DNA of 42,776 bases from Candidatus Bathyarchaeia archaeon (GTDB taxonomy: Archaea; Thermoproteota; Bathyarchaeia; Bathyarchaeales; Bathycorpusculaceae). The position numbers were made by a program, and so were the translations under genes. Location of the stretch: positions 1-42,776 of the forward strand of contig JBBFKZ010000006.1 in the NCBI GenBank assembly GCA_037481775.1, written 5' to 3'. The notes beneath the pieces are model-generated. The model did no database searches, was not told the origin of the DNA, and saw only the letters and a list, made by a program, of their open reading frames with translations. Shown piece after piece: positions 7,117 through 28,745 of this stretch. Positions within the stretch are counted from its first letter, which is position 1, and each line of letters starts with the position of its first letter.

Positions 7117-7143
7117 TTTTTTATTGCATCCGTTATATGCGGA

Positions 7144-11468: not shown

Positions 11469-11473
11469 GGTTT

Positions 11474-11785: not shown

Positions 11786-11792
11786 TTTCTCA

Positions 11793-12784: not shown

Positions 12785-12951
12785 AAAATATGCAAAGGGG
12801 CCAAGCTGTTTTTTATTAGGATACTTTCCTAACTTATTAAAAATCTGCAGACGATAAAGTGCAAATACAGCTTTCATAATGTACCTATTAGGGATTAAGG
12901 GTAGCCATATGCAGAGTCTAGTTTTTTATTATTTTTCTTATGGGCGCCTTT

Positions 12952-13242: not shown

Positions 13243-13534
13243 CGCAGACAAAGAAGCCAACGAGGTCAAATCCCCATAACAACAAGTATGATGAAAACAG
13301 CCCAACTCACCATTTCCAGCCCAAGCTTTTTCCGACAAGAACATGGAGTTTCCTGTTAGAAAAATAGAAAACTCAAACACCCCCTCCCCTCCACAATAGT
13401 AATAATAATATACTATTATAGGGGAAGAAAGCCTCAACAATATTTATACTCTCATTGCATTTTCACTCGCGCAATTTCAGCAGTTTTTCCTGTTAGAAAA
13501 CTCCTCCACCCGCCCAAAAATCCATGAAAGGGCT

Positions 13535-13562
13535 TGTTCTGTTAATTCACGTTAACAGACAA
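13535..13562. repeat. dif-like site A
   Basis: TGTTCTGTTAA-TTCACG-TTAACAGACAA. Confidence 0.6.
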
Positions 13563-13683
13563 CGCAGGAAAATTAAGTATTAGAAAATTTTTAAAAACTT
13601 CAAACCGCGCCTTATATAGGAGCCTTTCTGTGTCAACTCTGTCAAGGGCTTTTCGCATTAAATTGAAGTCAAGATTTCATCTG

Positions 13684-13711
13684 TTTTCAATTAAACATTA
13701 CTAACAGAAGC
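13684..13711. repeat. dif-like site B
   Basis: TTTTCAATTAA-ACATTA-CTAACAGAAGC. Confidence 0.5.
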
Positions 13712-13974
13712 TTGCATGCTGGTTATAAAGCTATATATCCGATTTTGTTCAAAGGCAGTTTGCAGGATGGAATTAGCAAGGGTGGACAGCGGTGGATTAT
13801 TTGAACCTTTTCTTCCAGAAGTCACAAAAGGCAATCCTCAATTACAGCCTACTAAATAGTTCACACATCTTATTTTAACAATATTGACATGTACCTTAAT
13901 CGGACAGAATCCAAGAAAGAAATAAAAGCATTTTAAACAATGTCTTTATTCAAATTGTCAATGAGGGCCTCAAT

Positions 13975-15054
13975 GTGAAGGTTCTTGTTCGCAAGCAAAA
14001 AGAGAAAGGGTGGATTAGCTTGCCTTCTGAAGGTTATTCGGGGGAAGCCCATTTACAGGAGATTCTTTTTAGAGATCCAGATATAGTTCCTGTAGAAGAT
14101 ATATCGTCGGATACAGAGCTTTCTCCAATTAAGTTGATGCTTAAAGAAGTTGGTCTTCCAGGCTCTGGAGCGACAGACCTTGTAGGTATTGACAAAAATG
14201 GCAACATATACGTCATAGAAACCAAGCTTGCTCGCAACCCTGAAGTTAGAAGGCAAGTTATAGGGCAAATTTTGGAGTATGCTGCCTTTCTACACGAGAA
14301 GGGCCTAGACTGGCTCGATGACGTCGTGAAAAAGCAAAAAAAGGTCAGCATTTCCGAATACTTTGATGAGCTAAATGATCCTGACTGGGACAAGGAATCT
14401 TTTGAACAGAACTTGCGAGATAACCTAAACTCAGGAACTTTCAAACTTTTCATAGCGGTTGATGAAATGAACCCTGACTTGCAGCGAATCATCAACTATA
14501 TGGAGAACGTTCTCAGCATGGAGATCTACGCCTTAGAGCTTAGATACTTCAAAGACAAGGATGGAATGGAGATTTTGGTACCAAATGTTCACGGCGGAAA
14601 AAAGAAACCACCTAAGCCGCTCCCAACATGGGATTGGGATCGATTCGTAGAAGATGCAAAGAAAAAGGTTGATGCTGCTACGCTAGCAACATTGCAAAAG
14701 TTATATGAGTTTTCTCTGCAACTTGGCAAAGTGGATTTTGGTAAGGGCAGAACTTATGGAACGTTTAGAGTTTGGCTACCCTACAAAAATGATGAGATAA
14801 ACTTGTATGTAATAACATCTACCGGTAAAGGAAACTGGTTCGGGTTCAAGTCAATGGTGGGGAAACAAGTTGACAAAGGGCTAATCTCAGAATATGTAAA
14901 ACAATTGAAGTCTTTGGGCTTTAAACTTGACGAAAAGAAACACGTAGAAGCCTATCCCACATTTGAAACAGCCATATTAAATCAAGAAGAAAAGTTCTCG
15001 GAATTTAAGAGGTATACCAACGAACTTAAAGAAAAATTACTAAGCCGAAGTTAA
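13975..15054 (+). CDS. PD-(D/E)XK endonuclease (NucS/EndoMS-like N-domain), candidate defence protein
   Basis: EAHLQE...TDLVGIDKNGNIYVIETKL...VIGQILEYAA. Confidence 0.78.
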   Translation: MKVLVRKQKEKGWISLPSEGYSGEAHLQEILFRDPDIVPVEDISSDTELSPIKLMLKEVGLPGSGATDLVGIDKNGNIYVIETKLARNPEVRRQVIGQILEYAAFLHEKGLDWLDDVVKKQKKVSISEYFDELNDPDWDKESFEQNLRDNLNSGTFKLFIAVDEMNPDLQRIINYMENVLSMEIYALELRYFKDKDGMEILVPNVHGGKKKPPKPLPTWDWDRFVEDAKKKVDAATLATLQKLYEFSLQLGKVDFGKGRTYGTFRVWLPYKNDEINLYVITSTGKGNWFGFKSMVGKQVDKGLISEYVKQLKSLGFKLDEKKHVEAYPTFETAILNQEEKFSEFKRYTNELKEKLLSRS

Positions 15055-15480
15055 TATGCGCATCTGCCCTTACAAAAAGTTCCTTACGGCACCTTAAAAT
15101 AAAAAGCAGAAGGAGCTGAAAACTGCCCTGGCCATGACTCAACCACAACTCCACCATTCACAAAGCTTCTGGAAAAGGAGCCTATGTTCATGAGGGGGCC
15201 TTTCTGAACGGTTCAAACTGGGCTTTTCCCGTAAAAAACACGACGTAAATAACCATGAGGGTTCCTGTTTGCAAGGAGCAAAAAAGGGGCCCCGTAGGGA
15301 CTCGAGGAGAAACTCCCACTAGAGGGAATTGAAGGTTTTTCCAGTTCAACATACCATTCGGTGCAGGCGACGCGTATAAGAAGCATGTTGAGCAAGCGGA
15401 CTCCAGCCAGCTTGTACACTTAATCAAGGTCTGCGGTTTCCTGATGCAGACAAGAGGTTACCTTTCTGGAAAAACACCTA

Positions 15481-15508
15481 ACTTCAGTTGAACATTATTA
15501 AAAGAGCA
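15481..15508. repeat. dif-like site C (degenerate)
   Basis: ACTTCAGTTGA-ACATTA-TTAAAAGAGCA; same 6-bp spacer as site B. Confidence 0.45.
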
Positions 15509-15569
15509 AAAGCATAGATTCGCTATACTTACTGAATATAGCAAAATTAATTATTGGCTGAATGTATCT

Positions 15570-16079
15570 TTGGAATTGATTGATATGAGTCAGGAAAAGC
15601 GGCTGGAAATTCTGTTACGACAATACAGCGAATGCTTTTCGGATCGAAGAACACAGGTTACCATGGTCTGGCAAATTCCTTCCATTACATTGGCTATAGA
15701 TACTTTCTTAGGTGTTCTCTATTTGGGATATGGAAAAGAGATTACGGCGGCAAGGTTACTTGCATTAGCAGCATCTGTCTTTTTCACTTTCGTTGCACTT
15801 GTGGCTCTAATTAAGCATAGATTTTTTGAAATAGCAAGAACCAGAGATATCATTTGGCTACAAAACGAGCTAAAGAAAATTGAGAGCAATATTAGAGAGA
15901 TAAAATTCAGTAGCGAAGATATTATATGTGATAAGGTAGGCTACCCCGATGTTCCTCGGCATTTCATCTCTCGAAGAAGCGCTTATAATTGGTTGAGAAA
16001 CATGATGGTTGCTATGCTGATAATATTGGTTTCACTCCTATTGCGAGAACTTATCCTCGTCATATACACGTTACATTGA
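15570..16079 (+). CDS. Small membrane protein with about 3 TM helices
   Basis: Two adjacent hydrophobic helices plus a C-terminal one; ATG 15585 is an alternative start. Confidence 0.7.
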   Translation: MELIDMSQEKRLEILLRQYSECFSDRRTQVTMVWQIPSITLAIDTFLGVLYLGYGKEITAARLLALAASVFFTFVALVALIKHRFFEIARTRDIIWLQNELKKIESNIREIKFSSEDIICDKVGYPDVPRHFISRRSAYNWLRNMMVAMLIILVSLLLRELILVIYTLH

Positions 16080-16115
16080 CAGAAGTGACAATTTTTACTT
16101 TGAGAGTTCACCAGA

Positions 16116-16143
16116 TGTTCTTTTAGTGTCTCTTAACAGAACA
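16116..16143. repeat. dif-like site D
   Basis: TGTTCTTTTAG-TGTCTC-TTAACAGAACA. Confidence 0.6.
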
Positions 16144-16229
16144 CTGAAGAAGCACCAATATGCAGTTTGTCGATCTCCATATGTCTGTGGATTTCTCGTG
16201 ATGGGATAAAATCCAAAAAGCTTGAGGGT

Positions 16230-16646
16230 TTATTTATGTTTTTTAGCCAGTTGCCAGAAATATCTAAGCTCTATTACGTCTATTTCTTTTGGGCATTCCT
16301 GCCAATCATGCTTCCAGCAAACAATTATTGTGTCTTTGTAATCTACTGGGGTTACATGCCCTTTTTTAATGTGTTCTACAAAGCCCTTGCTAAACACTTC
16401 AAACTCAACAAACTTAGGCTCATCTTTCCATATAACCCCGCAATCCAATCCTTGTCGCAGTCCAAAGTGTATGCCGGTAAAGTTGAAGAACTTATAAAGT
16501 CTTCCAAAGGCAAAGACTATAGCGTTTTCATACATATATTCTTCAGCTTCCGTTTCCCATAGGGGCGCCTCTTCCTCCCAGCTTTTGATGTCTTTTAGCA
16601 TACTGTCTAAATCTTTCACATACTTTCCAATAATTCTCTCTTCCAT
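16230..16646 (-). CDS. Small PD-(D/E)XK-like nuclease domain protein
   Basis: GLDC...VEFEVFSKGFVEH...IIVCWKHDW pattern. Confidence 0.62.
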   Translation of the reverse strand: MEERIIGKYVKDLDSMLKDIKSWEEEAPLWETEAEEYMYENAIVFAFGRLYKFFNFTGIHFGLRQGLDCGVIWKDEPKFVEFEVFSKGFVEHIKKGHVTPVDYKDTIIVCWKHDWQECPKEIDVIELRYFWQLAKKHK

Positions 16647-16827
16647 AACAGCACCAGCTCACCTTATCTTCAGTAACTTGATTTAAAATTTTCCGCATTT
16701 TTTAAAAATGTAAGCATGAGCGTAGATTTTTGCGTAATGGGATAAAAGAATTTTCGCACAGTTTAGGTTTTAACGGCTATTAGAATTACTAATTAGAATT
16801 ATTAAGTTAGTTGGGCTCCTAACTCAT

Positions 16828-17097
16828 ATGAGTCACATAACCGACATATGGGAACCCGTTCTTGGGAAAGATGGGAAAGTGAAGTTTAAACCTAAAGATA
16901 GGATTCGTGGACGTAAAGTAATATGTGCATGGTGCTCACGCAAATACCTATACTTGAAAACCAGTGATGGGGTAAACGTAAAAGTGAGGATTCGTGAATA
17001 TGAAGGGACTTGCCCTAAGTGCGGTAATATTAATGGTTCAGTAGAAAAATACAATGTTGACAAAAGCAGAGAAGATCCCTATCTTTTTTATAGCTGA
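16828..17097 (+). CDS. Small Zn-ribbon protein
   Basis: CAWC ... CPKC pair. Confidence 0.6.
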   Translation: MSHITDIWEPVLGKDGKVKFKPKDRIRGRKVICAWCSRKYLYLKTSDGVNVKVRIREYEGTCPKCGNINGSVEKYNVDKSREDPYLFYS

Positions 17098-17258
17098 CCT
17101 AAAGTGTTCAAAATGTAACACAACCTACAATGTGAAAGTCAACATCCATGCGCGCGCATTATGCTCTCTTTCTGCTTTTTCGCCAATTTTCGTTAAAATT
17201 TAAGCTTTAATAGCTATTGCTACTCCGCCGCATTTTGGGCAATAATAAGCTCCCTCAC

Positions 17259-17426
17259 TCATGTTCGCAGCCACGCTCCTATTGCAAACATCCTTGCCCT
17301 CCGCATCCTTTCACACTCAAGGTGCACATATTTGTTCTCTTGCAGCGGTATTTTTCTATACGGCTGGTTTTCGTATATTGGGCCTTTACATATCTCGCAT
17401 GTTCCAATTATTTTTGGCTCAGACAT
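17259..17426 (-). CDS. Small Zn-finger protein, 55 aa
   Basis: CEIC ... HLEC; SD GGAGG before ATG 17426. Confidence 0.6.
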   Translation of the reverse strand: MSEPKIIGTCEICKGPIYENQPYRKIPLQENKYVHLECERMRRARMFAIGAWLRT

Positions 17427-17542
17427 TTTTCTTACCTCCTTTACTTTTGACATTAGTAAATATAACTTTTTAACTTTTTTAACTTTTTTACTCTATCGTA
17501 AAATTTAGGTATCAATATGCGCGCGCGCAAAGGATAACGACA

Positions 17543-17570
17543 TGTTCCGTTAGTCGCTGTTAACAGAACA
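17543..17570. repeat. dif-like site E
   Basis: TGTTCCGTTAG-TCGCTG-TTAACAGAACA; the palindrome extends to CATG on both sides. Confidence 0.65.
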
Positions 17571-17600
17571 TGTTTGAGTTAATGCGAAGTGTGGATGCGC

Positions 17601-18696
17601 CAATTCCCTTTATTGGGATTTTTGCTCTGCATCTGAGGTGAACTTTACGGCTGGCGACAGGGACATGTACTTTCAATTCCCTTTATTGGGATTTTTGCTC
17701 TGCATCGTTTGCCTCCTGTTTTCTTTGATCGTATATAATAACATCTTTCAATTCCCTTTATTGGGATTTTTGCTCTGCATCCCGTGTTGACAGGCAAAAT
17801 ATGACATGTATCCACTTCGACTTTCAATTCCCTTTATTGGGATTTTTGCTCTGCATCGGCTTAGGCGCAGTGGATCGCGAGACACGCACACAGCTCTTTC
17901 AATTCCCTTTATTGGGATTTTTGCTCTGCATCGGCGAAGTCTATATCGCCTTCCTGCCATCCGCCTTCTATTCTTTCAATTCCCTTTATTGGGATTTTTG
18001 CTCTGCATCGATCGGGAAAATTGGTGGTCGACTCGAATTGTTCGAGTACTTTCAATTCCCTTTATTGGGATTTTTGCTCTGCATCCTGCTGCTATCTGCA
18101 GCGTCAACAGCTTTAATGTACAAGTTTTCAATTCCCTTTATTGGGATTTTTGCTCTGCATCTTCGTCCCCGTTTGTCAATATGTACTCTACGTCCTAGAA
18201 TTTTTCAATTCCCTTTATTGGGATTTTTGCTCTGCATCAACCAGCCAAGCAGGAACATGCCTACAAACACAGGAAAGTTTTCAATTCCCTTTATTGGGAT
18301 TTTTGCTCTGCATCAGAAGCTCTTATGAGCGATTTTAAGGCGTCTCTTATGAATTTTCAATTCCCTTTATTGGGATTTTTGCTCTGCATCCCGACACCGT
18401 TAGCCTAACGGTGCAAGGCGAAAGCATTATTTTCAATTCCCTTTATTGGGATTTTTGCTCTGCATCGGGCTTGCTGAGTTCTAGTTTTTAAGTAAAAGTT
18501 TACTGGATTTTCAATTCCCTTTATTGGGATTTTTGCTCTGCATCCATTTTGAAAGAAACACGGAACCTGAAGTCGTTCATAGAATTTTCAATTCCCTTTA
18601 TTGGGATTTTTGCTCTGCATCCAAATAAGACAAGACGAGAAAACTAAACTAGTAATAATTTTTCAATTCCCTTTATTGGGATTTTTGCTCTGCATC
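17601..18696 (-). CRISPR. CRISPR array, 15 repeats (1 truncated trailer) and 14 spacers of ~36-41 nt
   Basis: 37-nt repeat GATGCAGAGCAAAAATCCCAATAAAGGGAATTGAAA(G/A) on the minus strand. The ATTGAAAN 3' end and the degenerate copy at 17601 place the leader on the right. Confidence 0.98.
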
Positions 18697-18831
18697 CGTG
18701 GGCATTTTTTGGCGGGTTTGCCATTTTAGGCTATATTTGAGTTTAGTTCTGGTATGTATTTTCGATTATTATCTGAGTGGAATTTGATTTATAAAGATAA
18801 TCGAAATTAGCCTTTTTATGGCTGAGTAGAA
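18697..18831 (-). promoter_or_regulatory. CRISPR leader, shared divergent promoter with csa1
   Basis: AT-rich 135 bp with TTTATAAA at 18788-18795, flanked by inverted repeat TTTCGATTAT/ATAATCGAAA. Confidence 0.7.
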
Positions 18832-19719
18832 TTGTACTTTCTATCGGATGTTGAGCATAAGTATCTGCTTTATCAGCTTTTGCCTACTGCTAGAGAAGTG
18901 GGTGTTAGCAAAGAACTGCGAGGTTGGAGTTGGCATCAGCCCCCATTAAAGCCCTATCATGACAATGTGAAGTTGCCCATGTACGCAGTAAGCTCAAGGT
19001 ACTGTCCCACGAACCGCGATGTTTACTTGCGTTATGTGGAGAAAATTTCACCTGTTCCAAGCGGTAAGGTGGCGCTTGGCAAAATTCTACACGGCGTGGT
19101 CAGCGACTGTTTAATGGCTTTTATTCAGCGTGGTAGCATGGATTTTGATGCTTGGTGGCAGACTATCCGCTGGTTTGAAATTCCTGAAAAGCCTGAAAAT
19201 TTGAGAGAGCCTTCTAGAAGGGTTTGGGAGTTTGTGCAGAAAATTTGTGAGGCACGGTTGGCTGATGTTTCCAGCAGACAACCTTACGCTTCAGAGCTTG
19301 ACCTTAGGGTTTCAGCTGTGCCTTTTCTGGTAGAGCATAAGATTTCAGGCGAACTGCTTGGTTTAAGCGGTATTCTCAGCTTGGATTGCTATGATTATTT
19401 AAAGGCGATAATGTTTGACTTGAAGGTCGCAAGCGAACCACAGGAATGGCATAGGCTTTCGCCTGTGGGTTATGCGCTTGTTTTCGAAAGCGTCCACGAA
19501 GTTCCAGTGGACATCTGCTGTAACGTATACCTTAATGTGGAAAATGGGAAGGTTCTGGTGCGTAAGGATTTGTTCTTCGCTAGCGACGAGTTGAGGCAAT
19601 GGTGGATAGAAGAAAGAGATAGAAAACTGGAGATTGTAGCTGAGGGAAAAGATCCGGGCAAGCCAGATCGTTCGCAATGCAAAGAGGACTGCATGTATTT
19701 CAAAGTATGCTATGAATAA
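18832..19719 (+). CDS. csa1: Type I-A Cas4-like protein Csa1
   Basis: ELRGWSW, YCPTNRDVYL, DLK nuclease motif, C-terminal CxxxCxxxxxC. Confidence 0.9.
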   Translation: MYFLSDVEHKYLLYQLLPTAREVGVSKELRGWSWHQPPLKPYHDNVKLPMYAVSSRYCPTNRDVYLRYVEKISPVPSGKVALGKILHGVVSDCLMAFIQRGSMDFDAWWQTIRWFEIPEKPENLREPSRRVWEFVQKICEARLADVSSRQPYASELDLRVSAVPFLVEHKISGELLGLSGILSLDCYDYLKAIMFDLKVASEPQEWHRLSPVGYALVFESVHEVPVDICCNVYLNVENGKVLVRKDLFFASDELRQWWIEERDRKLEIVAEGKDPGKPDRSQCKEDCMYFKVCYE

Positions 19720-19745
19720 CAACCATAAAAGTCAGTGGTGGTTTT

Positions 19746-20780
19746 ATGAAGATTTTCTTGGATGATTTTGGCATTTTCTTGGGCAGAAAAAGAAATCGCT
19801 TTATCGTGAAGAAAGAAGGCGAGGTAAAAGAAATTGTTGCTGATGATGTTGATTCTATAATTTGCTGCTCCTCTGGCGTCGCATTCTCAGCCAGTGCTTT
19901 AAATTTAGCTGTTCAAAATAACATTCAAGTTGTTTTTGCCCGTTACAGTGGTTGGCCCTACGCTTTTTTGATGCCAGCGTCAATGACCGGTTCAGTAAGG
20001 GCTCGAAGGGAACAATTCACCGCCTACAATGATGAAAGAGGCTTTATTTTAGCCAAAAAGTTCATAGCTGGAAAACTTGTAAACCAAGCGAATCTCTTGA
20101 AGCTTATGGCTAAAAACAGACGTCAGACCGACCCAGCACTTTCCGAAAGGCTTTATGAAGCTGGCAAAGCCATAGATGAAATATACACTAAAGTTGATAA
20201 AGAGCAAGGCTTCAAAATTGATGATAAACGCCAAGATTTGATGAATTTAGAGGCTGAAGCTGCACGTTTTTATTGGGATGCTATCCGGCAAGTATTGCCA
20301 ACGGAGCTAGGTTTCACAGGGCGAATAACAAGGGGAGCACGCGACCCTTTTAACGCTATGCTAAACTTTGGCTATCAAACAATTCTCTTTCCAGAGGTTT
20401 GGAAAGCCATTAGCTATGCTGGTTTAGACTTTTATGCGGGTTACTTACACGCTGACAGACCCGGCAAGCCCTCCCTAGTTTTAGATCTAATGGAAGAGTT
20501 TAGACAGCAAGTTGTAGATAGAACCCTTATCGGCTTAGTAACGAAGAACGTGATTAAACCTGATGAGATTATCGTTGCTGAAACTGCTGAAGAGGGCAGA
20601 GTATTAAACAAGGAAGTTGTTAAAACTTTGCTTGCAAGTTTTCAGGAGCGCTTGGATACAGAGGTCATGTTTGATGGACAACATGGACCCGTAAAAAGCT
20701 TTATTCACCATCAAGCTAGGCGTGTAGCACGCTTTCTACTACGTGAAGCAGATTATACCCCGTTTACCTTAGGTTGGTGA
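19746..20780 (+). CDS. cas1: CRISPR-associated endonuclease Cas1
   Basis: EAEAARFYW, DPFNAMLNFGY, GYLH, SLVLDLMEEFRQ. Confidence 0.97.
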   Translation: MKIFLDDFGIFLGRKRNRFIVKKEGEVKEIVADDVDSIICCSSGVAFSASALNLAVQNNIQVVFARYSGWPYAFLMPASMTGSVRARREQFTAYNDERGFILAKKFIAGKLVNQANLLKLMAKNRRQTDPALSERLYEAGKAIDEIYTKVDKEQGFKIDDKRQDLMNLEAEAARFYWDAIRQVLPTELGFTGRITRGARDPFNAMLNFGYQTILFPEVWKAISYAGLDFYAGYLHADRPGKPSLVLDLMEEFRQQVVDRTLIGLVTKNVIKPDEIIVAETAEEGRVLNKEVVKTLLASFQERLDTEVMFDGQHGPVKSFIHHQARRVARFLLREADYTPFTLGW

Positions 20781-20786
20781 TAGCAT

Positions 20787-21077
20787 ATGCGATACGTGGT
20801 TATTTATGATATTACGGACGACAACCTGCGGGCTTTGGTTGCTGAAACACTCAAAGACTATGGATTGCAGAGAATACAATACAGCGCATTCATCGGCGAT
20901 CTACGCCGCGACGAACTAAACAGCCTAATCGTGGACTTGAAAAACTTGATTAGGGATTTAAAAGAAAATGTCCAACTTTATCCGCTGTGTAATACGTGTT
21001 TTAAGGGCAGAAAGGAGGTGGGAAAACCCAAAAAGTATGAATTAAAAGAGGGAAAAGAGAAAATAGCCTACTTTTGA
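20787..21077 (+). CDS. cas2: CRISPR-associated endoribonuclease Cas2
   Basis: YVVIYDITDD, RIQYSAF. Confidence 0.97.
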   Translation: MRYVVIYDITDDNLRALVAETLKDYGLQRIQYSAFIGDLRRDELNSLIVDLKNLIRDLKENVQLYPLCNTCFKGRKEVGKPKKYELKEGKEKIAYF

Positions 21078-21131
21078 CGTGCCGCAATACTTATGTATGC
21101 GTTCGATATCATTTGTATACGGTGAAGTTGG

Positions 21132-21446
21132 TTGACTCTTAAACCTTTGGCTGTTAGGATTCCTGAAGAAATCGAGAAAGAAATTCAAGAGGTGATTGAG
21201 CGGGAAGGTTTGGATAAGGCTACAGCAGTGAGAACTCTCCTCGAATTAGGTATTGGAGAATGGCGCAAGCAAACAGCTTTGGAGTTGCTACGAGATGGAA
21301 AAGTGACGTTTGCTAAGGCTGCTGAAATAGCCAAGCTTTCACTTTGGGAATTCGCTGACATGGTAAAGCAACGCAATATCGAGTGGGTTAGGCATAGGCC
21401 GGAAGAAATCGATAAAGAGTTTAAGGAAGCAACTGGGCGGAGTTAG
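21132..21446 (+). CDS. UPF0175-like antitoxin/DNA-binding protein
   Basis: N-terminal RHH-like AVRIPEE; GKVTFAKAAEIAKLSLWEF; 1 nt before a PIN gene. Confidence 0.8.
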   Translation: MTLKPLAVRIPEEIEKEIQEVIEREGLDKATAVRTLLELGIGEWRKQTALELLRDGKVTFAKAAEIAKLSLWEFADMVKQRNIEWVRHRPEEIDKEFKEATGRS

Positions 21447-21447
21447 A

Positions 21448-21975
21448 GTGAAAAAGCTCGTTTTTAATGCTACTCCGCTAATCTACTTGACCAAGATAGG
21501 GCTAAGCAGGATTTTTGAGGAGTTGAAGGATGAGAAGTTAACCTCTCCAAGCGTTAAAAGAGAGGTGGTGAATGAAGGAAAACGTAAAGGTGTTGCAGAC
21601 GCCATAATTCTAGACAAGCTGTTTCTAAAAGGCGTGTTCAAGATTGTTGAACCTAAAGATAAGAATTTTCTAGAAAGTCTTTTGCAGACGAGGGGCCTTC
21701 ACGTGACTGACGCCGAGGTTCTAACAGTAGCTAAGGAACAGCGTGGAACAGCCATAATAGACGATGAAGTGGCGAGGAGAACAGCTAAAATTTATGGAAT
21801 ATCCTATGCAGGCACACCATACATCTTAGCAAAAGCAGTTTCTGAAGAAATTATTACAAAGGAAAAGGCTAAACAAGCCATAAACGAGATGGTTTATGCC
21901 GGTTGGAGATGCAGCATCGAAACCTACGCTAAAATCATGGAAACTATAGAAAAGCTTGGAAAAAGTAAGCGATGA
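21448..21975 (+). CDS. PIN-domain (DUF3368/VapC-like) ribonuclease toxin
   Basis: VFNATPLIYL, VKREV, LHVTDAEVL, IIDDEVAR, GTPYIL. Confidence 0.82.
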   Translation: MKKLVFNATPLIYLTKIGLSRIFEELKDEKLTSPSVKREVVNEGKRKGVADAIILDKLFLKGVFKIVEPKDKNFLESLLQTRGLHVTDAEVLTVAKEQRGTAIIDDEVARRTAKIYGISYAGTPYILAKAVSEEIITKEKAKQAINEMVYAGWRCSIETYAKIMETIEKLGKSKR

Positions 21976-22640
21976 GCGAGGTTAAACATGTGAGTGCCCA
22001 TCTAGGGGAGAGGCAGACCCTGCCTGTTTCAGATGTTGCTGAACCTTATGTTTCAGTAACCGACGTAAAACATTACATTTATTGTCCTAGGCTTGTGTAT
22101 TTTGATCGCGTTTTGCATGCCCAACCCGTTTTCGGCTCTCAACAGGAGGAAAGCCAAGAGCTACATGAGGAATATGTGCGCAAAGAACTCCGTCGCAAAG
22201 ACGCTGTTTACTATTCGCCGGAATTTGTCGGCGCCGAAAAATTGCTTTTTGTTCAGCTTGTTTCAGAAAAGCTTCAGCTTCAAGGCGTTGTGGACTGCGT
22301 AATCAAGACAGCTAAAGGCGAGTATATTCCAGTTGAGTATAAGAATATGAATTCTGATTGTGGAAAGGCGTATATGGATCATAAGTATCAGCTTGTGGCT
22401 TACGCTTTGCTTGTTGAAGAAAATTTTAGCTCTGTTGTTAAGCGAGGTTTTGTCAATTATATTCCAGAAAAGCTAATTTTGCAGTTTGAAATTACGCCGA
22501 CTATGAAAAGTTATGTGAAAAGGGTGATTGGACACATAAAGAGGATAATCAAAGAGGAAAGGCTGCCGCCCATAAGAGTAGCCCAAAACAAATGCCAAGG
22601 AGGATGCGGACACAAACAAATATGCCAAATTAACCTATAA
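21972..22640 (+). CDS. cas4: CRISPR-associated exonuclease Cas4
   Basis: YCPR, GVVD, PVEYK, QLVAYA, CxxxCxxxxxC. Confidence 0.93.
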   Translation: MSEVKHVSAHLGERQTLPVSDVAEPYVSVTDVKHYIYCPRLVYFDRVLHAQPVFGSQQEESQELHEEYVRKELRRKDAVYYSPEFVGAEKLLFVQLVSEKLQLQGVVDCVIKTAKGEYIPVEYKNMNSDCGKAYMDHKYQLVAYALLVEENFSSVVKRGFVNYIPEKLILQFEITPTMKSYVKRVIGHIKRIIKEERLPPIRVAQNKCQGGCGHKQICQINL

Positions 22641-22679
22641 CGTAAAACTTAAATTGATTAACAAGGTTAACAATCGCAT

Positions 22680-23006
22680 ATGTCAGAAGCAAGTTTTAGG
22701 AAAATTTTCGACTGGGCTTTTGCGGTAGGCAAAGACATCGTTAGCAAGTCTAAATGCGGGCATGAGAGAGGAAAGGATTACTTAAAGCGGCTGATTTTTG
22801 ATATTAGAGCTGAGGAAATGCCTGGTCGATTCTTAGATAAACTCTCCCAAAGACTTGGTGAATATAGAACGAACATCAATATACAAGCCCCTGTAAGTTT
22901 GCTCCCTGAAATTTTTCAGTCAAAGGAACGATGGAGTGGAGATAGTTTTTATTACTTAAAATCGGCGATTCTCTCTGGGTTACTAAATGCTTTAAGTAGT
23001 TACTGA
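22680..23006 (+). CDS. Probable Cascade small subunit (Csa5/Cas11-like)
   Basis: 108-aa helical protein directly upstream of cas7; the call is positional. Confidence 0.55.
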   Translation: MSEASFRKIFDWAFAVGKDIVSKSKCGHERGKDYLKRLIFDIRAEEMPGRFLDKLSQRLGEYRTNINIQAPVSLLPEIFQSKERWSGDSFYYLKSAILSGLLNALSSY

Positions 23007-23016
23007 GGTATGAAAG

Positions 23017-23973
23017 TTGAAAGTTGCCCAAATATCCATAATCGCAAAGGTTTCAGGTAATGTAAATGCAGATGAGGTAATAGGAACTCGGGTAACACTG
23101 AAGAAAATGTATTCTTCAAGTGGTGAGGTTTTACCTTTTGTCTCAGCAAGAGCGATAAAATACGCCATAAGACATGCTTTGAAGGACATGGGATTTGAGG
23201 TTGACCCTTTCATTGAAAATCCTGGGGCGGAGGAAACACTTAGATTAAGTGATACGGGTGATCCTGTAAAATTTATTGATAACGATTTGTTTGGATACAT
23301 GGTGACGCTTGGAAGAGGTAAGACTGCCAGAAGGAGACAAGGTCCAATTGCCCTTTCGTATCTTAAAGCGCTAAGAGATACTCCGGTAAAAGCTGAATTT
23401 GCTGCGCGATTTCCAAGACCATGGAGTAAAAAGGAGGAGGAAAACCCTGTTCCCTTTGAAGTAGAAGTGGCTGAGTTTATAGGAAAAGTCAATTGTGTAA
23501 TATACGAAAACATTGGGATATTTGATGAAAGCGAGCTGAAAGGTGAAGATGAATTAAAAAAGAAGCTCAGCCATAAAGAAGTTAACGGAAAATCAATTTT
23601 TATGCTGGATGAAGATACTAGGAAGAATAGGATTAAAGCCTTTTTACAGGTTTTCTTAACACCGTCCTACGTCTTACCACGAAGAACAAACTCACTAAAT
23701 ATGCCGGAATATCTAACAGCTCTCATAGCATTGTCAGCCAATGGACCATTACCAATTTTCCAGTATTTAACATTCGACTTCGATCAAAATTGTGTTTGCT
23801 TAGATAGTTTAAATAATCTATTATCAAGAGATGAAATTGCGAAAATTGGTGCGAGTTTCTTTTTAATTGACTATACAAACCGGTTGCACTTATCTAATCA
23901 AACGATTCTCAAAAAGCTATCAGTGTCAGAGGCTATTAATAAGATAGCCGACTTCTTTTGCGTGACAAAATAA
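23017..23973 (+). CDS. cas7: Cas7 (DevR/Csa2-like) backbone subunit
   Basis: NVNADE, LPFVSARAIKYAIR, DNDLFGYM, RRQGPI. Confidence 0.88.
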   Translation: MKVAQISIIAKVSGNVNADEVIGTRVTLKKMYSSSGEVLPFVSARAIKYAIRHALKDMGFEVDPFIENPGAEETLRLSDTGDPVKFIDNDLFGYMVTLGRGKTARRRQGPIALSYLKALRDTPVKAEFAARFPRPWSKKEEENPVPFEVEVAEFIGKVNCVIYENIGIFDESELKGEDELKKKLSHKEVNGKSIFMLDEDTRKNRIKAFLQVFLTPSYVLPRRTNSLNMPEYLTALIALSANGPLPIFQYLTFDFDQNCVCLDSLNNLLSRDEIAKIGASFFLIDYTNRLHLSNQTILKKLSVSEAINKIADFFCVTK

Positions 23974-24653
23974 TGAAGGCCGTCATAGTTAAAGTTTCTT
24001 TCTCTGAAGCTTTTTTTAAGGTTCACTACACAAAGGGGTTCAGGCTTACATATCCTATTCCATTACCAACATCCGTTGCTGGAATGTTTGGTGCTTTTTT
24101 AGGTGTGGAAAGGGAAAAAATCAGCGATCTTCAAAAATTTTTGTTTGGGGCAAAACTTGAGAAATATAACGGTTTCATAAATGAAAATGCAACTTTCAGA
24201 CAATACAAAAGCTATGGAGTGGAAATAGGCGTTGCGACATTAAACCTCATTAACAATCCAACATACCTAATTGCACTTGCAGGAGAAAAAGAAGAGGTAA
24301 TTAAAATACAAGATAAGATAAGAAAGGTTGTTGAATTTCTGCCTTACGGTGGGCAAAATGATTTCTTTGCAGAAGATTGGGCTGTTGTTGGAATAGATGA
24401 CGTCACAGAATCAGATGAAATTACAAATTACGCTCCTCGAGACTGGGTTGACCTAAGCATAAAAAGCAATCTAGAAGTTACATTACAAATCCTCCCAGTG
24501 ATGCATACACTATCAGATAATCCTAATTTTTACTTTATGACAAGAGGAAAAATAAAGTTGAACAGGAAAATACCCTGCACAAGTAGCGAAAAAATAGGTC
24601 TTTATAATCTAAATAACTTCAAAATGGAGAAGCATAATGGAAAAGTGGGTTAA
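23973..24653 (+). CDS. cas5: Cas5
   Basis: AFFKVHYTKGFRLTYPIPLPTSVAGMFGAFLG, PYGGQND; ATG overlaps the cas7 stop. Confidence 0.9.
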   Translation: MKAVIVKVSFSEAFFKVHYTKGFRLTYPIPLPTSVAGMFGAFLGVEREKISDLQKFLFGAKLEKYNGFINENATFRQYKSYGVEIGVATLNLINNPTYLIALAGEKEEVIKIQDKIRKVVEFLPYGGQNDFFAEDWAVVGIDDVTESDEITNYAPRDWVDLSIKSNLEVTLQILPVMHTLSDNPNFYFMTRGKIKLNRKIPCTSSEKIGLYNLNNFKMEKHNGKVG

Positions 24654-26748
24654 CCCAGCTTGTAAGCTAAGCCATGAAAATAAAACAATTTCCCAGCATA
24701 TTCAAGAAGTTCTGGCAATACTAGGCGAATACTTACAGTTTTATGGACTCAGAGAAAGATATTTTGAAATAGCAAAATTTCTTGCAGAGCATCATGATGC
24801 CGGAAAAATGCATGTCAATTGGAACTTTAACTCAAAAGAGGGGCATGCTCACCACTCACTAGAGTACATGTTGGAGAAAAAAATCGAATGCCATGAAAAA
24901 AATCTGGATCCCATTCTAAAGTTTTTAATTTTGAAGCATCATTCATCACTTTCTGATGTCATCGGAGAAAAAACAATAGAGTATTGTGGGAAAAAATATT
25001 CGATTAGAAATGTTTTTAATGTGCTTTTCAAGGATGAGATGAACTCTTCATTAAGCAAAATAGTCAATAACCAATTTAATTTGATAATTGATGTGGTCGA
25101 TGTTTTTGGGCTTTTCAAAATAGCCGACGTATGTTCAGCAAAAGGTAAAGCGGTGCGACTGAAACGTCCAGCGATCACAGAAGATTTTGTGAAGCGAATT
25201 GTCGCAAAAAAATTAGACGAAGTTAGGTGGAATGAGCAGAAAACTCTGGCTAGTCTGCCTAACATTTCAATGCTTAGAGCGTATACTGGTTGGGGAAAGA
25301 CCGACGTTTCATTACTATTTTTTAGAGACAAAAAGGTTTCGAAAGTTTTTTATCTTCTTCCTACAATAACCGCAATAAATAATTTTTTTAAAAAACTTCG
25401 CAAAGCATCTGATGAAGAAGTTGCAAAATACTTTTACTTTCTCGACACTGAATTGAAGGAAGATTATGAAAAACTCTCAAACTTATATTTTATAGAGAAC
25501 TTTACGGCACCTTATAACATAACTACCATAGATCAGTTTTTATTGGTTTTTCTTCAGGTCGGAAAATATTATACCAAACGTGTTATGTTCAGAGATTCCG
25601 GTCTAATAATAGACGAGGTTCATTTATTAAATCCTCTGATGCTCGATTTATTGACATTTTTTCTTAAAAAATATGCTATGACCTACAATTTCAAAATTCT
25701 TTTTATGTCAGCAACTTTTCCTAGTGCTTTAATTAAATATTTTTGTGAAAATTTTAAGGTAAATCGTTTTTTAGATTATTCTAAGGGTTATGAGGAAAAG
25801 CGGCGAGTAATGTGGGAATACATAAATGAGCAAATTGAAAATTCTGTAGAGAGCATTATCAGAGAAAGACAAAAGGGTAAAAAAGTTTTGGTTATAACCA
25901 ATACCGTAGAAGACGCAAATAATTTGGGCAAAAAATTTGAAAATGAAATCAAATTATCCTACGGCGAAGATTTCATAGTTTTTCATGCAAGAACCATGTA
26001 TAAAGATAGGAAAGAAAAAGAGAACTGGTTAAATAATAACCGGGAGAAACCGCACGTTGCTATTACAACACAAGTATGTGAAGTTTCATTAGATCTATCT
26101 TATGATGCCATGTTCACAGAGCTTGCTTCACTTCCAGCGCTTGTTCAAAGGTTCGGCAGAGTTAACAGGTATGGAGATAAAACCAAGGAAATAAATGTCT
26201 ATATCTTTAAGCCGCATGTTAAAAATCCACAAACTTATCCTTATTCTGAAAACGAACTAAAAATTTCTGAAGAGATCGTTAGAGAGCTTGAAGGCGAAAA
26301 CCTACGTAATGAAAAACAGTTGATAGAAAAAGCAGATTTATCGCTTGGTTATGAAGAATTATTAAATGAGATAACCCTTGCAAAAAGAAGCATCAACATG
26401 AAATACTGGGAGGAACTATTGAAATTTTTTTACTCTTTTGATGTGAAAGATGAAAAAATATCCCGAGCACTAAATTACAGAGAAGGTTTCACTACGCTGG
26501 TGATTCCACACCCGGACTGTATAGAGGAGCCAATGAGAAGTTATGTAGCTGAATTATTGCGAAAGGATTTTTCATGCAAAAGTTTCAATGAGAAAAGTAA
26601 GTTAATAGCAGAATTAAAAGAATTGGCTGTCCCTATTCCATTTTGGTGGTTAAGAAATGCAAAACTTGAAGAAAGCATTTTTCCTATAGCTTACTTAAAG
26701 GACATAATTTATAACTCTAAATACGGATTTCATAAGCGAGGTATATGA
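24637..26748 (+). CDS. cas3: Cas3, fused HD nuclease + SF2 helicase
   Basis: HHDAGK, HH motifs, AYTGWGKT, DEVH, MSAT, QRFGRVNR. Confidence 0.95.
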   Translation: MEKWVNPACKLSHENKTISQHIQEVLAILGEYLQFYGLRERYFEIAKFLAEHHDAGKMHVNWNFNSKEGHAHHSLEYMLEKKIECHEKNLDPILKFLILKHHSSLSDVIGEKTIEYCGKKYSIRNVFNVLFKDEMNSSLSKIVNNQFNLIIDVVDVFGLFKIADVCSAKGKAVRLKRPAITEDFVKRIVAKKLDEVRWNEQKTLASLPNISMLRAYTGWGKTDVSLLFFRDKKVSKVFYLLPTITAINNFFKKLRKASDEEVAKYFYFLDTELKEDYEKLSNLYFIENFTAPYNITTIDQFLLVFLQVGKYYTKRVMFRDSGLIIDEVHLLNPLMLDLLTFFLKKYAMTYNFKILFMSATFPSALIKYFCENFKVNRFLDYSKGYEEKRRVMWEYINEQIENSVESIIRERQKGKKVLVITNTVEDANNLGKKFENEIKLSYGEDFIVFHARTMYKDRKEKENWLNNNREKPHVAITTQVCEVSLDLSYDAMFTELASLPALVQRFGRVNRYGDKTKEINVYIFKPHVKNPQTYPYSENELKISEEIVRELEGENLRNEKQLIEKADLSLGYEELLNEITLAKRSINMKYWEELLKFFYSFDVKDEKISRALNYREGFTTLVIPHPDCIEEPMRSYVAELLRKDFSCKSFNEKSKLIAELKELAVPIPFWWLRNAKLEESIFPIAYLKDIIYNSKYGFHKRGI

Positions 26749-26751
26749 AAT

Positions 26752-27723
26752 ATGAGTTACAAAGAAATGCTTTTCAAATTTTTGGAAAACGACATAAGCG
26801 CACAATACTGCTTACCTATCGTAAAAAAACTGTTGCAAGCTAACTTTCGTGGCGGTAACTTTGTTATAACGGCCGGTAATGAAAAATTGGTTGTCGCGCC
26901 TAATGAAATAAAGACAAAGATCCAAACAGTTCTTGATTTTATTGTAAAGAAGGCTTTATTAGAAGGTTATAATGTGCTGGTTACTCCTTGCATTATCAGC
27001 AAGGAGCAGGCCCCAAATTTTTATTTGGAAGATGAGGTTCCAAAATCGGAAGAATTATGGAGGTTTCTTTACCTTTTATTAACCGGAGTGCACGGTTTTG
27101 ATCACGTCTTAAATATTGAAAATGCCCCAGCGAAGGTGACTGAGAGTTTCAAAGAATGGTTGATAAATAAAAACTATTTGGTAATAAGCGCTGAACGTTC
27201 TGGGTTAAATGTCAAGAAATTGCTTTCAAGCTTGAATGTACCTAGAGGATTGACATTAGAAGAATTTATAATGAGTTTCATATTTCTTTCATATTTTGCT
27301 AAATTCTGGAAAGACATGCAAGAAAGAATCGAAATCGCTGGGAATGTTGGGAAGCTGCTTTCAGAGATACCTGATGACGCTTCACTAGTTGTTTTTGTAC
27401 TTTCCCGACAAAAGAAAAGAATGTATGTTTTTTCCAGACTAAAAGAGATTATAACGAAATATTACGGCGACTTCTTTATAAGCGATGACCAAATCCCGAG
27501 CATTTGTAGATTCATTTTTTCATTATACATAAGCGATGCGAATTACAGAGAGATATGTGTAGGGATATTGAACAAATTACTGTATTATTTGCTTCAAGGG
27601 CATATAAATGGCGAACTCCTTTCAAGAGCCGTAGAGCTCAAAACAAATTATGAGCTTAGAAAGAAAGAGCGCAAAATTTTCGGTTTACACAATGCACAGC
27701 AATTCCTAACAAAACTTGGATAG
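26752..27723 (+). CDS. Probable Cas8a-like large subunit (short, divergent)
   Basis: Last gene of the effector operon, 3 nt after cas3; no other Cas8 candidate in the locus; no motif recognised. Confidence 0.5.
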   Translation: MSYKEMLFKFLENDISAQYCLPIVKKLLQANFRGGNFVITAGNEKLVVAPNEIKTKIQTVLDFIVKKALLEGYNVLVTPCIISKEQAPNFYLEDEVPKSEELWRFLYLLLTGVHGFDHVLNIENAPAKVTESFKEWLINKNYLVISAERSGLNVKKLLSSLNVPRGLTLEEFIMSFIFLSYFAKFWKDMQERIEIAGNVGKLLSEIPDDASLVVFVLSRQKKRMYVFSRLKEIITKYYGDFFISDDQIPSICRFIFSLYISDANYREICVGILNKLLYYLLQGHINGELLSRAVELKTNYELRKKERKIFGLHNAQQFLTKLG

Positions 27724-28521
27724 ATTACACTTAATTTTTGTAATTCCGAATCCTGCTGTTTTGTTTCCTCCTATGTTTGAGTATTCCGCGTATTTCGCCA
27801 GCATAACTGTCACTTTGCTCCATTCGCTTTCCAAATCTTTCATCTCGTAAGCACACCACCCCACAAACCCCACAGCCTTCTTTTCACGCATAACAGCCAA
27901 CCTGGTTCTAAGCTTGTAACCGCAAACCCCAACATTCTTACCCAACCACTCCTTATAAGCCAAAAACTCCTCTTTACCAAAGCGTCTACCATCGCTGAAC
28001 TTGTTCCAAACACGCATCAACCCAGAAAAAATCCTCACGGAGTCGGGAAACATCCAACGATAACTACTACCCAAACAAGGCAAGTAGGTAGGCGTCTCAA
28101 AAACAAGCTTGAACCGCTCAGCCACTTCCGCTTCACGCTCCAAATCCGCGTAGCTTTTACTTTTAATGCTTAAGGAGGCTACGCGAAAAACCGTGTCAAA
28201 AATCATAACGCTATTCTGCCGCTCAAAAAACCTCAAAACGTAACCAGCCAAATCATCCCGCAAAAACCTAAAACCCACGTAACATGGAGAAGCAGGATCC
28301 AAAACAAAGCCATTCTCAACCCGCGAAACACTCCTAAAACGCAAAGGCGTAACACTGTAAGGCTTAGAAACATTCAACTCATGCAAAACACAAGCTGCAC
28401 TAGGATCCACAAGCCTAACAATATGCAGCAACAACCCCCTAGCCACATGCCCAGTAAAAAACGGCAAAACCACACCTTTCTCCCCAAACAACTCCAAACC
28501 AACCTCAACAGGCAAGTCCAC
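27706..28521 (-). CDS. cas6: CRISPR RNA-processing endoribonuclease Cas6
   Basis: KPYSVTPL, FETPT, C-terminal G-rich loop NIGGNKTAGFG. Confidence 0.92.
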   Translation of the reverse strand: MDLPVEVGLELFGEKGVVLPFFTGHVARGLLLHIVRLVDPSAACVLHELNVSKPYSVTPLRFRSVSRVENGFVLDPASPCYVGFRFLRDDLAGYVLRFFERQNSVMIFDTVFRVASLSIKSKSYADLEREAEVAERFKLVFETPTYLPCLGSSYRWMFPDSVRIFSGLMRVWNKFSDGRRFGKEEFLAYKEWLGKNVGVCGYKLRTRLAVMREKKAVGFVGWCAYEMKDLESEWSKVTVMLAKYAEYSNIGGNKTAGFGITKIKCNLSKFC

Positions 28522-28600
28522 TCAACTCCCCAACTGAGATTCACATTATTTATCAAGTAATTAAGGATAAAACATGAATTAAACCTTAAAGATTTTTATG

Positions 28601-28628
28601 TATTCTGTTAGTTGCTGTTAACTAAAAT
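28601..28628. repeat. dif-like site F
   Basis: TATTCTGTTAG-TTGCTG-TTAACTAAAAT; direct repeat of site E (18/20 over TTCYGTTAGTYGCTGTTAAC). Confidence 0.65.
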
Positions 28629-28707
28629 GGCAAAAACAAGCCTTAAATTGTCTAGAAACAGAAAAAGAGGGGATTTTGCGGGAGAAGTCTCCAGTTTGTG
28701 GCGAATT

Positions 28708-28723
28708 CGAAATAATTCCCTAA
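28708..28723 (+). repeat. Putative attR, displaced original 3' end of the radical SAM gene
   Basis: CGAAATAATTCCCTAA encodes EIIP*; 22 nt from the convergent kinase stop codon. Confidence 0.65.
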
Positions 28724-28745
28724 GCTACCAAGCCTTTCCCGTCGT

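Follow-up and report, generated by a model that had tools for sequence, protein, structure and literature searches.

Short palindromic sites with ordered centre classes as putative borders of gene modules in integrated elements of Bathyarchaeia

The subject of this report is an integrated mobile element in a stretch of 42,776 nt (the window) from a Candidatus Bathyarchaeia archaeon, which forms the first 42.8 kb of an 80-kb contig (JBBFKZ010000006.1) in a genome of 1.82 Mb and 54 contigs (G000). The cargo of this element is divided by six short palindromic sites, designated A to F. A sequence-only reading of the window had taken them for dif-like sites between cassettes of defence genes, which host XerA or the integrase of the element would add and remove. 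The comparative evidence presented below supports the idea of recombination cassettes, in a form that would correspond neither to Xer/dif nor to the plasmid-dif (pdif) modules of Acinetobacter.

Alignment of 46 sites gave the consensus TTCTGTTAR, six variable bases, YTAACAGAA, in which the arms are alike and the palindrome extends, more weakly, 2-3 bases further outward. The geometry is of the Xer/dif type, with two imperfect inverted repeats of about 11 bp flanking a 6-bp spacer. The sites proposed by the sequence-only reading are real: five of the six (13535, 13684, 16116, 17543 and 28601) match its 28-nt pattern with at most three mismatches (eight strand-wise matches at five distinct sites), against a mean of 0.00 and a maximum of 0 matches in 100 dinucleotide shuffles, and the sixth is degenerate. 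A conserved non-coding block (13315..13711) contains site A (13535-13562), which has the centre TTCACG, and 149 nt away site B (13684-13711), with the centre ACATTA. Site C (15481..15508), in direct orientation with B and with the same centre ACATTA, is the degenerate one, with 4 mismatches in the 18 arm positions of the 9-6-9 pattern TTCTGTTAR-N6-YTAACAGAA; a homologous copy is found at G000:C3:40004. Site D (16116..16143) has the centre TGTCTC, which recurs unchanged at G000:C11:6335 and in four other genomes (G013, G008, G009 and G031). Site E (17543..17570, centre TCGCTG) adjoins the trailer end of a CRISPR array, and site F (28601..28628), with a degenerate right arm, has the centre TTGCTG, also found in G304. 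As the sequence-only reading had stated, all six are intergenic, with open reading frames (ORFs) on either side.

To the left of the element host genes extend up to a radical-SAM gene (5995-7116). The element begins with a 437-aa integrase (7144..8457, minus strand), which has an N-terminal zinc ribbon followed by an Xer-like core-binding and catalytic domain. It is followed on the same strand by a replication module (8686..11468), in which an AEP primase (10455-11468; PF22548 AEP-TOTE, 82 bits) is accompanied by a 592-aa protein that belongs to no known family. This module shows 82-91% protein identity to its counterpart in G013 (locus L025) and is also present in locus L057. The rest of the backbone consists of a 114-aa protein (11474-11818, minus strand), a 236-aa winged-helix-like protein (12074-12784, plus strand; weak matches to MarR_2, 19.5 bits, and to MreA/ArsR) and a 100-aa protein (12940-13242, plus strand) whose N-terminus resembles a ribbon-helix-helix (RHH) domain when the alignment is inspected by eye. 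The family of the latter adjoins the A-B block in five loci. The block itself is kept at the nucleotide level in L023, L024 and L025 and holds, around site A, a TATA-like box and extra half-site-like repeats; the distance from A to B amounts to 147-149 nt in the window, L024 and L039 and to 123 nt in L025.

The cargo follows. Between B and C (13712..15480) lie a 359-aa gene (13975-15054, plus strand) and a small ORF (15188-15427, minus strand). The claim that B and C share a spacer and flank a NucS-like nuclease holds for the spacer and the flanking; the likeness of the 359-aa protein to PD-(D/E)xK/NucS-type nucleases is weak (16.9 bits, with a cut-off of 216). The C-D cassette (15570..16079, plus strand) encodes a 169-aa protein for which no Pfam or NCBIfam match was found. 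The D-E cassette (16144..17542) contains an ORF at 16230-16646 on the minus strand or, as the other possible reading, at 16167-16562 on the plus strand, an ORF at 16828-17097 (plus strand) with a weak phage zinc-binding match, and one at 17259-17453 (minus strand). Finally, E and F enclose a CRISPR-Cas cassette (17587..28521) of about 11 kb. Its array (17587-18698, minus strand) has 15 repeats and a leader at about 18700-18830, the direction being presumed from the ATTGAAAG-type repeat end. The cas genes, of type I, follow in the order csa1, cas1, cas2, a UPF0175/DUF3368 pair, cas4, cas7, a cas5 candidate, cas3, an unassigned 323-aa gene and cas6 (27706-28521, minus strand), and the adaptation part shows 75-87% protein identity to that of G013 (L029). 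Beyond F the element ends in a terminus (28629..28745) with the motif GGGGATTTTGCGGGAGAAGTCTCC and a decayed tRNA-T-arm-like stretch, after which a host histidine kinase gene starts at 28746.

The six central bases of the sites draw on a small set of words. Among 60 sites chosen by their arms only (sites fetched by their centre were left out) there were 16 different six-base words, and 51 of the 60 used just seven of them: CGATGA (14 sites), GAGACA (12), CAGCGA (10), ACGTTA (5), CGTGAA (4), CTGCAA (3) and ACATTA (3). Other words, such as CACCTC and TTGCTG, were recurrent in the census of genomes of the taxonomic class. The same words recur in different genera and families and even in bins of other phyla. 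Moreover, the classes follow each other in a fixed order and orientation, A-B-D-X-E-G, which is kept in 45 of 46 neighbouring pairs at 26 loci; the sole exception is L061, where the D sites match poorly. D, X, E and G share one orientation and B is inverted. Where a class occurs twice in one array, the two sites are direct repeats around a block, as B and C in the window and the two D sites in L027. In the window the series reads A, B, C (again of B type), D, E and F.

The last of these deserves comment. The sequence-only reading had treated E and F as a pair of like sites around CRISPR-Cas. They do flank it; a simple pair of direct repeats is not what the comparison suggests, since the homologous CRISPR-Cas block of G013 starts at an E site and has at its other end, just past cas6, a site that belongs to a different class (centre TTGCAG; L078:5729). 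Because of this different end in G013, F, whose centre TTGCTG is one change away from either E or G, is probably the site of the G slot and not a second E. The junction at the other end (a site, 45-58 nt and a terminal CRISPR repeat) was found at 5 of 41 E-class sites. In one further 8-kb locus (L045:4765-4843) an E site lies 55 nt from a lone CRISPR repeat with none further in the locus, which may be the remnant of a lost array.

If the sites delimit modules, homology between elements should be interrupted at them, and this was observed. Flanks of 70-80 nt on each side were compared and counted as shared when a local score of at least 35 was reached over 80 nt. In classes B, D, X, E and G only 26 of 1279 same-class pairs shared a flank and 1253 shared none. 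In 25 of the 26 pairs the sharing was limited to one flank, and the lone pair with both flanks in common consisted of two contigs of one virus. Class A kept both flanks in all six pairs, because A lies in the backbone block. The best single case is an O-methyltransferase (OMT) cassette that is present twice in G013, once within an array (C2) and once alone beside an Lhr helicase gene (C1). Identity between the copies is about 92%; it sets in with the first base of D and lasts through the final base of X, with unrelated sequence outside, and the conserved upstream region of the gene lies inside the sites. The backbone shared by the window and G013, from the integrase to site A, shows 54-91% protein identity and ends just before B, the homology with L025 stopping at about 13655. 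Likewise, the left flank of site C is common to L033:7961 and the right flank is not. The E-G slot is occupied by CRISPR-Cas in the window and in G013:C2 and by a C39-peptidase gene in G013:C1, and the distance between X and E varies from 469 to 4141 nt. Taken together, these comparisons support the view that the sites behave as module boundaries.

Parts of the region 13300-17700 occur in 20 public sequencing runs from 17 studies, and contigs of four of these runs (X2, X3, X4 and X6) were compared over positions 11000-30500. Contigs of X2 and X3 enter the B-C block from different left flanks and break at 13691, within B. In X2, X3 and X4, pieces of contigs begin or end at D (16117/16118, 16132 or 16141), and contigs of X4 diverge within F at 28622 and 28625, one of them restoring the canonical right arm. 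Three of the four runs (X3, X4 and X6) have a joint that leads from the end of E (17569) to the terminus motif (28656) and bypasses CRISPR-Cas. Joints of this kind lend weak support to the boundaries proposed above. The expectation that changes in gene content break at the sites was borne out: homology ends there and contigs branch at B, D, E and F. Some indel boundaries, described below, lie elsewhere.

The motif is rare. A loose scan of the 1.82 Mb of G000 (10-8-10 pattern, at most 5 mismatches in 20 positions) gave 14 places, five of them in the window locus, four elsewhere with B/C, D or E centres (C2:106203, C11:6335, C1:3258 and C3:35969) and five that looked like chance matches. With the further B/C-type copy at C3:40004, where positions 40097-40004 are 86% identical to 15410-15502 of the window, G000 has at least 11 sites. 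The scatter over promoters throughout the genome that would have marked a transcription-factor operator was thus not seen, as there were only 14 loose matches, nine of which had class centres. In relatives, scanned with TTCTGTTAR-N6-YTAACAGAA at two mismatches, the motif was present in 13 of 41 related genomes (G000-G040) and in 64 of 401 genomes of the class, leaving 337 without a site at this threshold. Matches cluster in some genera of the family of the window (31 of 103 family genomes) and are nearly absent from others. The pattern reached 13-14 matches per strand and genome, compared with 0-2 for a reversed pattern used as control; G013 alone had 13 matches on the forward strand, with the control at 0-1 among the 41 genomes. 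The exact 19-letter pattern of class E was found in 31 stretches among species-representative genomes, whose record titles name Bathyarchaeota/Bathyarchaeia (24), 'uncultured archaeon' (3), Baldrarchaeota (2), Micrarchaeota (1) and Poribacteria (1). It was also present on two viral contigs. On viral contigs the D-class pattern gave eight matches, all weak in the other arm (3-6 mismatches), the X-class pattern three, of which only that on L092 was convincing, and the B-class pattern none.

Elements of more than one kind carry the sites, in each case in the accessory part that is distal to the integrase. The locus of G009 (L027) starts with tRNA-Cys and an integrase, which small genes and the sites B, D, D and E follow in this order. 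A tailed-virus-like provirus on G000:C3 extends from tRNA-Arg and an integrase (at about 76.8 kb) to the B-type site at 40004, after which come two cargo genes, the E site at 35969, terminus motifs and two tRNA 3' fragments, one of which matches the 3' end of tRNA-Arg over 17 identical bases. A terminus motif similar to that of the window is also present beside the E-class site at G000:C1:3258, as it is beside C3:35969 and the tRNA 3' fragments of C3. The whole provirus, of about 41 kb (G000:C3:35700-76900) and with tail-like genes, lies between tRNA-Arg and its 3' fragment, and nested at its far end are a further 3' fragment, which is tRNA-Gly-like, and another copy of the terminus motif. On the tailed-virus contig L066 an E site separates a PKD-domain gene from tail genes, and the viral contig L092 has a series of E, X, D-like and B-like sites. 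Another arrangement was seen at G000:C2:103122-106228, where a gene for a compact tyrosine-recombinase-like protein of 209 aa precedes tRNA-Val by 2.3 kb; 61 nt past the tRNA gene there is a B-type site, and after it the gene of an 817-aa secreted protein.

With respect to genes, 98 of 99 sites lie outside ORFs, counted from 80 aa upwards. Among the 81 sites with genes on both sides the gap is of the end/start type in 41 cases, end/end in 23 and start/start in 17. The nearest start codon is between 8 and 536 nt away, and the sites have no T-run. Because the gap types are mixed and the distances to start codons so variable, an obligatory role as promoter, operator or terminator does not fit the sites. 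The cargo is also diverse. The sequence-only reading had spoken of defence cassettes, which is apt for the CRISPR-Cas block in the window; elsewhere the cargo consists of mixed accessory genes, mostly for large secreted proteins (NosD/beta-helix, PKD, CARDB, SBP_bac_5, peptidases C39 and M14), with small methyltransferases and an F420-dehydrogenase-type protein in addition. The motif GGTTTAGATCTCGGTTTAAATTCTCGG, considered as a companion of the sites, also occurs far from any of them and was taken for a common promoter-like element. Similarly, a GGTTTAGATCTCGGTTTAAATTCTCGGAATTT-like motif of about 40 nt is present near some sites and far from any (L026:1878, L028:5236, L031:7181, G000:C11:51541 and others) and may be a strong promoter.

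How could modules be exchanged without disturbing the order of their borders? We lean, if only slightly, towards the explanation that the sites are core sites of an Xer-like tyrosine recombinase and that matching centres restrict exchange to equivalent slots. The explanation is attractive because the arms are alike, asymmetric centres are few, their order is fixed and homology ends at the sites. The arms that all sites have in common (9-11 bp), set around an asymmetric 6-bp centre, would be read by a single enzyme, and strand exchange would require matching centres; as a result only sites of the same class would recombine. By means of two crossovers, the block that lies between two slots could be traded between two elements or between an element and a chromosomal island. 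A circle with a single site would enter or leave a slot by one crossover, leaving direct repeats of the same class, such as B/C in the window and D/D in L027. In other words, the order of the slots would be kept as their content changes. That a recombinase cuts at the sites, and which enzyme it might be, we infer from these comparisons.

A wider conception, to which we would give a little less than an even chance, is that of a shared docking rail of mutually non-reacting sites, in which about seven centres would serve as addresses and blocks would be traded slot-for-slot between unrelated elements of Bathyarchaeia. Just as tentatively, the rail would extend over plasmid-like primase elements, tailed viruses and chromosomal islands and accommodate blocks up to the size of the 11-kb CRISPR-Cas cassette. 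If so, it would be a natural counterpart of heterospecific lox/FRT exchange and a third cassette system beside integrons and pdif modules.

The first candidate for the recombinase would be the Xer-like integrase family of the elements themselves. The integrase of the window matches PF00589 with 86.6 bits, and its best family match is NF040815 XerA_Arch (102.9 bits over residues 156-395, below the cut-off of 220). The best relative of solved structure is XerA of P. abyssi (4a8e; E 2.5e-15, residues 150-391), and the R, HxxR and GH..Y motifs are visible in the alignment of the two. Members of the family are found within arrays or next to them in the window, L025, L027, L054, L057 and at G013:C1:936 kb. 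The closest homologues (60% identity in G008 and 54% in G013) come from genomes with sites, many genomes that have the family lack sites, and across the 41 genomes no clear link between integrase identity and site counts was found. A second recombinase family (G000:C27, L028, L030, L048 and L051) is close to sites in four loci; it has no site nearby in G000 and is present in genomes without sites.

Several observations weigh against a site-specific recombinase. Arrays without a nearby integrase exist (G013:C2). Paralogous integrases adjoin tRNA genes and tRNA 3' fragments mark the ends of elements; because of the position of these paralogues, the attachment sites proper to them are tRNA-like and not the palindromes. 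No such site was found at the integrase-side junction of the window element or of L025, and G002, G007 and G015 are rich in integrases of the family and have no site at two mismatches. Among the metagenome contigs, those of all four runs diverge to the left of 17158, between two small ORFs of the D-E cassette where there is no site, and the cas effector block is swapped at about 22629-27745, off any site. The metagenome joints have sides of only 24-26 nt on assembled contigs and may derive from a paralogous arrangement; in G000:C3, for instance, an E site adjoins the same terminus motif as in the window. The solitary D-OMT-X block of G013 is absent from its genus-mate G041, the difference being an indel of about 840-890 bp. 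Its ends lie 94 nt outside D and 50 nt outside X, and it is flanked by an imperfect direct repeat of the target, 54 nt long, and not by the sites. Neither D nor X was used in this gain or loss, so other routes of movement exist; a site-bounded unit may ride inside larger mobile pieces. In addition, variants of the arms do not clearly travel with a shared flank (few pairs, judged by eye), and the related genomes are not independent, so that the counts given above overstate the number of events.

Some of these observations would be accommodated if the sites were boundary sequences with another primary role and modules were exchanged by homologous recombination across islands of identity of about 24 bp, in the manner of the PeSLs of T4-type phages. 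Exchange at short intergenic motifs, including the formation of mini-circles, is documented for PeSLs (PMC2839356). The sites here are tied to no recombinase, some boundaries lie off the sites, and arm variants do not neatly follow the flanks. About seven position-specific centres, kept across genera and orders with constant arms, would be left unexplained. Nor do the gaps look like those of expression signals: convergent (23/81), divergent (17/81) and tandem gaps all occur, there is no fixed distance to a start and no T-run, and the OMT cassette brings its own conserved upstream region inside its sites. We consider this explanation rather unlikely, if the one most worth weighing besides a recombinase. 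The sites could also be operators of an RHH or winged-helix regulator encoded by the elements and be retained as syntenic descendants of one island. The RHH-like family always adjoins the A-B block, the conserved non-coding surroundings of site A include a TATA-like box and half-site-like repeats, and the order of sites is conserved as it would be in a syntenic island. However, most sites are in loci without a gene for an RHH-like regulator, and they persist amid unrelated genes, as the 1253 of 1279 same-class pairs without a shared flank attest. Moreover, a cassette with both its sites stands alone between core genes in G013, and an operator would have no need of conserved, class-specific centres. 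We regard such a role as improbable.

The explanation closest to the sequence-only reading is that a chromosomal Xer of the host acts on plasmid-dif-like sites, as with the pdif modules of Acinetobacter and with IMEX. It would account for the 11-6-11 geometry with TAA/TTA at the inner ends and for the same module appearing in different contexts, and archaeal XerA is both the nearest profile and the nearest solved structure of the integrase. Against it, none of the 41 related genomes (G000-G040) has a protein over the NF040815 cut-off of 220 bits; the best scores, 183 and 181 bits, belong to two other families of the order, and the family of the window reaches 131.9 at best. The absence of sites from 337 of 401 class genomes argues against a universal chromosomal dif of this sequence. 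Arms that are alike and sites in direct orientation are unlike the alternation of XerC/D and D/C reported for pdif. Since the XerA cut-off is reached in none of the 41 genomes and the motif is missing from most of the class, a Xer/dif system of the host is unlikely, and we regard this version of it as very improbable. XerA of the host, named in the sequence-only reading as one of two possible enzymes, thus found no support, the sites being multi-copy and on mobile elements. Lastly, the palindromes might be terminal or subterminal structures of small non-autonomous units (IS200/IS605-like, REP-like or mini integrative elements) moved in trans. They could fold as hairpins, and D-OMT-X lies in the insertion of about 840-890 bp with 54-nt imperfect direct repeats that G041 lacks. 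General family searches found no Y1/HUH transposase among the ORFs examined, although no search was aimed at one. The ends of IS200/IS605 elements extend 10-20 nt beyond their hairpins, and the identity of the cassettes stops at the outer edge of the sites without such extra ends. Copies number tens per genome and not hundreds, and a fixed order of classes would not be expected of transposition. To this possibility we attach hardly any weight.

Returning to the recombinase explanation, it is instructive to compare the arrays with known cassette systems. In pdif modules the two arms of a site, for XerC and for XerD, differ from each other and successive sites alternate in orientation, the host XerCD being the presumed enzyme. 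Their sites are short, of 11-6-11 form, and lie between accessory genes of mobile elements. They resemble the present arrays in that the same module can be bounded by sites in different contexts (D-OMT-X in G013:C2 and G013:C1). They differ in that the arms here are alike, centres fall into ordered classes with D, X, E and G direct, the hosts are archaea without a host XerA over the cut-off in 41 genomes, and a cassette may have two different end sites (D and X). The analogy with pdif drawn in the sequence-only reading was therefore not sustained, given like arms, about seven centre classes in fixed order and orientation and cassettes with unlike ends. Similar in design is the engineered exchange of cassettes by Cre or Flp at heterospecific lox or FRT sites, in which arms are identical, spacers do not cross-react and a block between two unlike sites is swapped while its neighbours stay undisturbed. 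Common arms with distinct spacers are found here too; the difference is that the array would be a natural one, with about seven spacer classes and a candidate enzyme.

Integrons, including those of archaea, are arrays of cassettes between recombination sites, and arrays without a nearby integrase are common, according to Ghaly et al. (2022); attC sites are longer and structure-specific in the single strand, and IntI has an extra domain (PMC9668308). The present arrays are likewise cassettes separated by sites, with or without a nearby integrase. However, the sites are palindromes of 24-28 bp of the duplex type with the order GTTA...TAAC, in contrast to the outer order AAC...GTT of attC. The integrase is far below the cut-offs of integron-integrase profiles (TIGR02249, 64.6 bits against 265; NF011946, 31.7 against 435), genes face either way and the class of a site is specific to its slot. 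A scan with Rfam at the gathering threshold gave no match at the sites; whether Rfam holds an attC model was not checked.

The literature on archaeal XerA/dif describes two 11-bp inverted repeats, a 6-bp spacer and a single recombinase species (PMC2958812, PMC8371274, PMC5357621), and a dif that is present in a single copy in the terminus region (PMC2958812, PMC8371274). By contrast, the sites described here are multi-copy (six in 15 kb), lie inside integrated mobile elements and are patchy among genomes. The label 'dif' is for this reason better avoided. PeSLs are repeated intergenic motifs of T4-type phages at which modules are inserted, deleted or replaced (PMC2839356). They combine a promoter with a terminator and are driven by homology, whereas our sites have class-specific centres and no fixed relation to the start or end of genes; the arrangement of a promoter and terminator stem-loop between co-directional genes is absent from the 23 end/end and 17 start/start gaps. 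The terms 'cassette' and 'IMEX' are absent from what is available of a review on tyrosine recombinases in archaea (PMC8371274), and the available part of a paper on viruses of Bathyarchaeia (PMC10848311) mentions integrases and no such sites. No such arrays were found in the literature searched, which did not extend to subscription journals, in keeping with the remark of the sequence-only reading that it was not aware of a description in archaea. Separately, conjugative plasmids of Sulfolobus carry a short palindromic motif at the borders of variable regions that undergo rearrangement; it is a single motif and is not known to form ordered classes.

If they are recombination sites, they would account for the transfer of accessory genes as whole units between viruses, plasmid-like elements and chromosomes in a class of archaea that is abundant and uncultured; complete CRISPR-Cas loci, methyltransferases and large secreted proteins are among these units. 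Such a cassette system, with the same arms throughout, address-like centres and fixed slots, would follow a logic unlike that of integrons and pdif modules. It might also provide genome engineering with naturally orthogonal sites and a recombinase from a thermostable lineage. Even under the rival explanations the sites are a practical marker for delimiting cassettes and the cargo of elements in metagenome-assembled genomes of Bathyarchaeia.

Some details of the element and its surroundings remain to be mentioned. The homology with the left flank of genus-mates ends at 7141, at the stop codon of the integrase. No direct repeats were found between the integrase end and the F flank. The one clean empty site, that of G041 relative to the D-OMT-X block of G013, has its boundaries outside the sites and counts against the recombinase explanation. 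G002 and G005 keep the left flank up to 7141 and continue in unrelated DNA, and G041 keeps only the integrase-side flank of the G013 element. The idea that F is the right end of an IS200/IS605 element with a TnpB RNA was dropped, the adjoining gene being the histidine kinase. A tRNA or split tRNA flanking F and the C3 site was likewise considered; folding by hand failed, and there is only a 3' fragment beside a repeated terminus motif. The PAS/histidine-kinase sequence is read as two ORFs (29798-30931 and 28746-29774), the second of which starts inside the PAS domain, and there may be a frameshift or a split gene. The insertion in G013 (C1:474.7-475.6 kb; L032:6668-7615) relative to G041:C2 resembles a mini integrative element without an integrase of its own.

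Within the CRISPR-Cas cassette, the UPF0175/DUF3368 pair (21132-21975), which we take to be of the antitoxin and PIN-like toxin type, lies between cas2 and cas4 and is also conserved in G013. The effector block swapped among the metagenome contigs comprises cas7, the cas5 candidate, cas3 and the 323-aa gene, with the adaptation genes and cas6 kept; its joints connect 22624/22628 to 27735/27745, and loose ends occur at 22629. Far from the main array, Rfam reports a single CRISPR-DR7 match (41567-41603; 39.2 bits, cut-off 37), about 400 nt from a tRNA-Gly(CCC) gene at 41985-42061.

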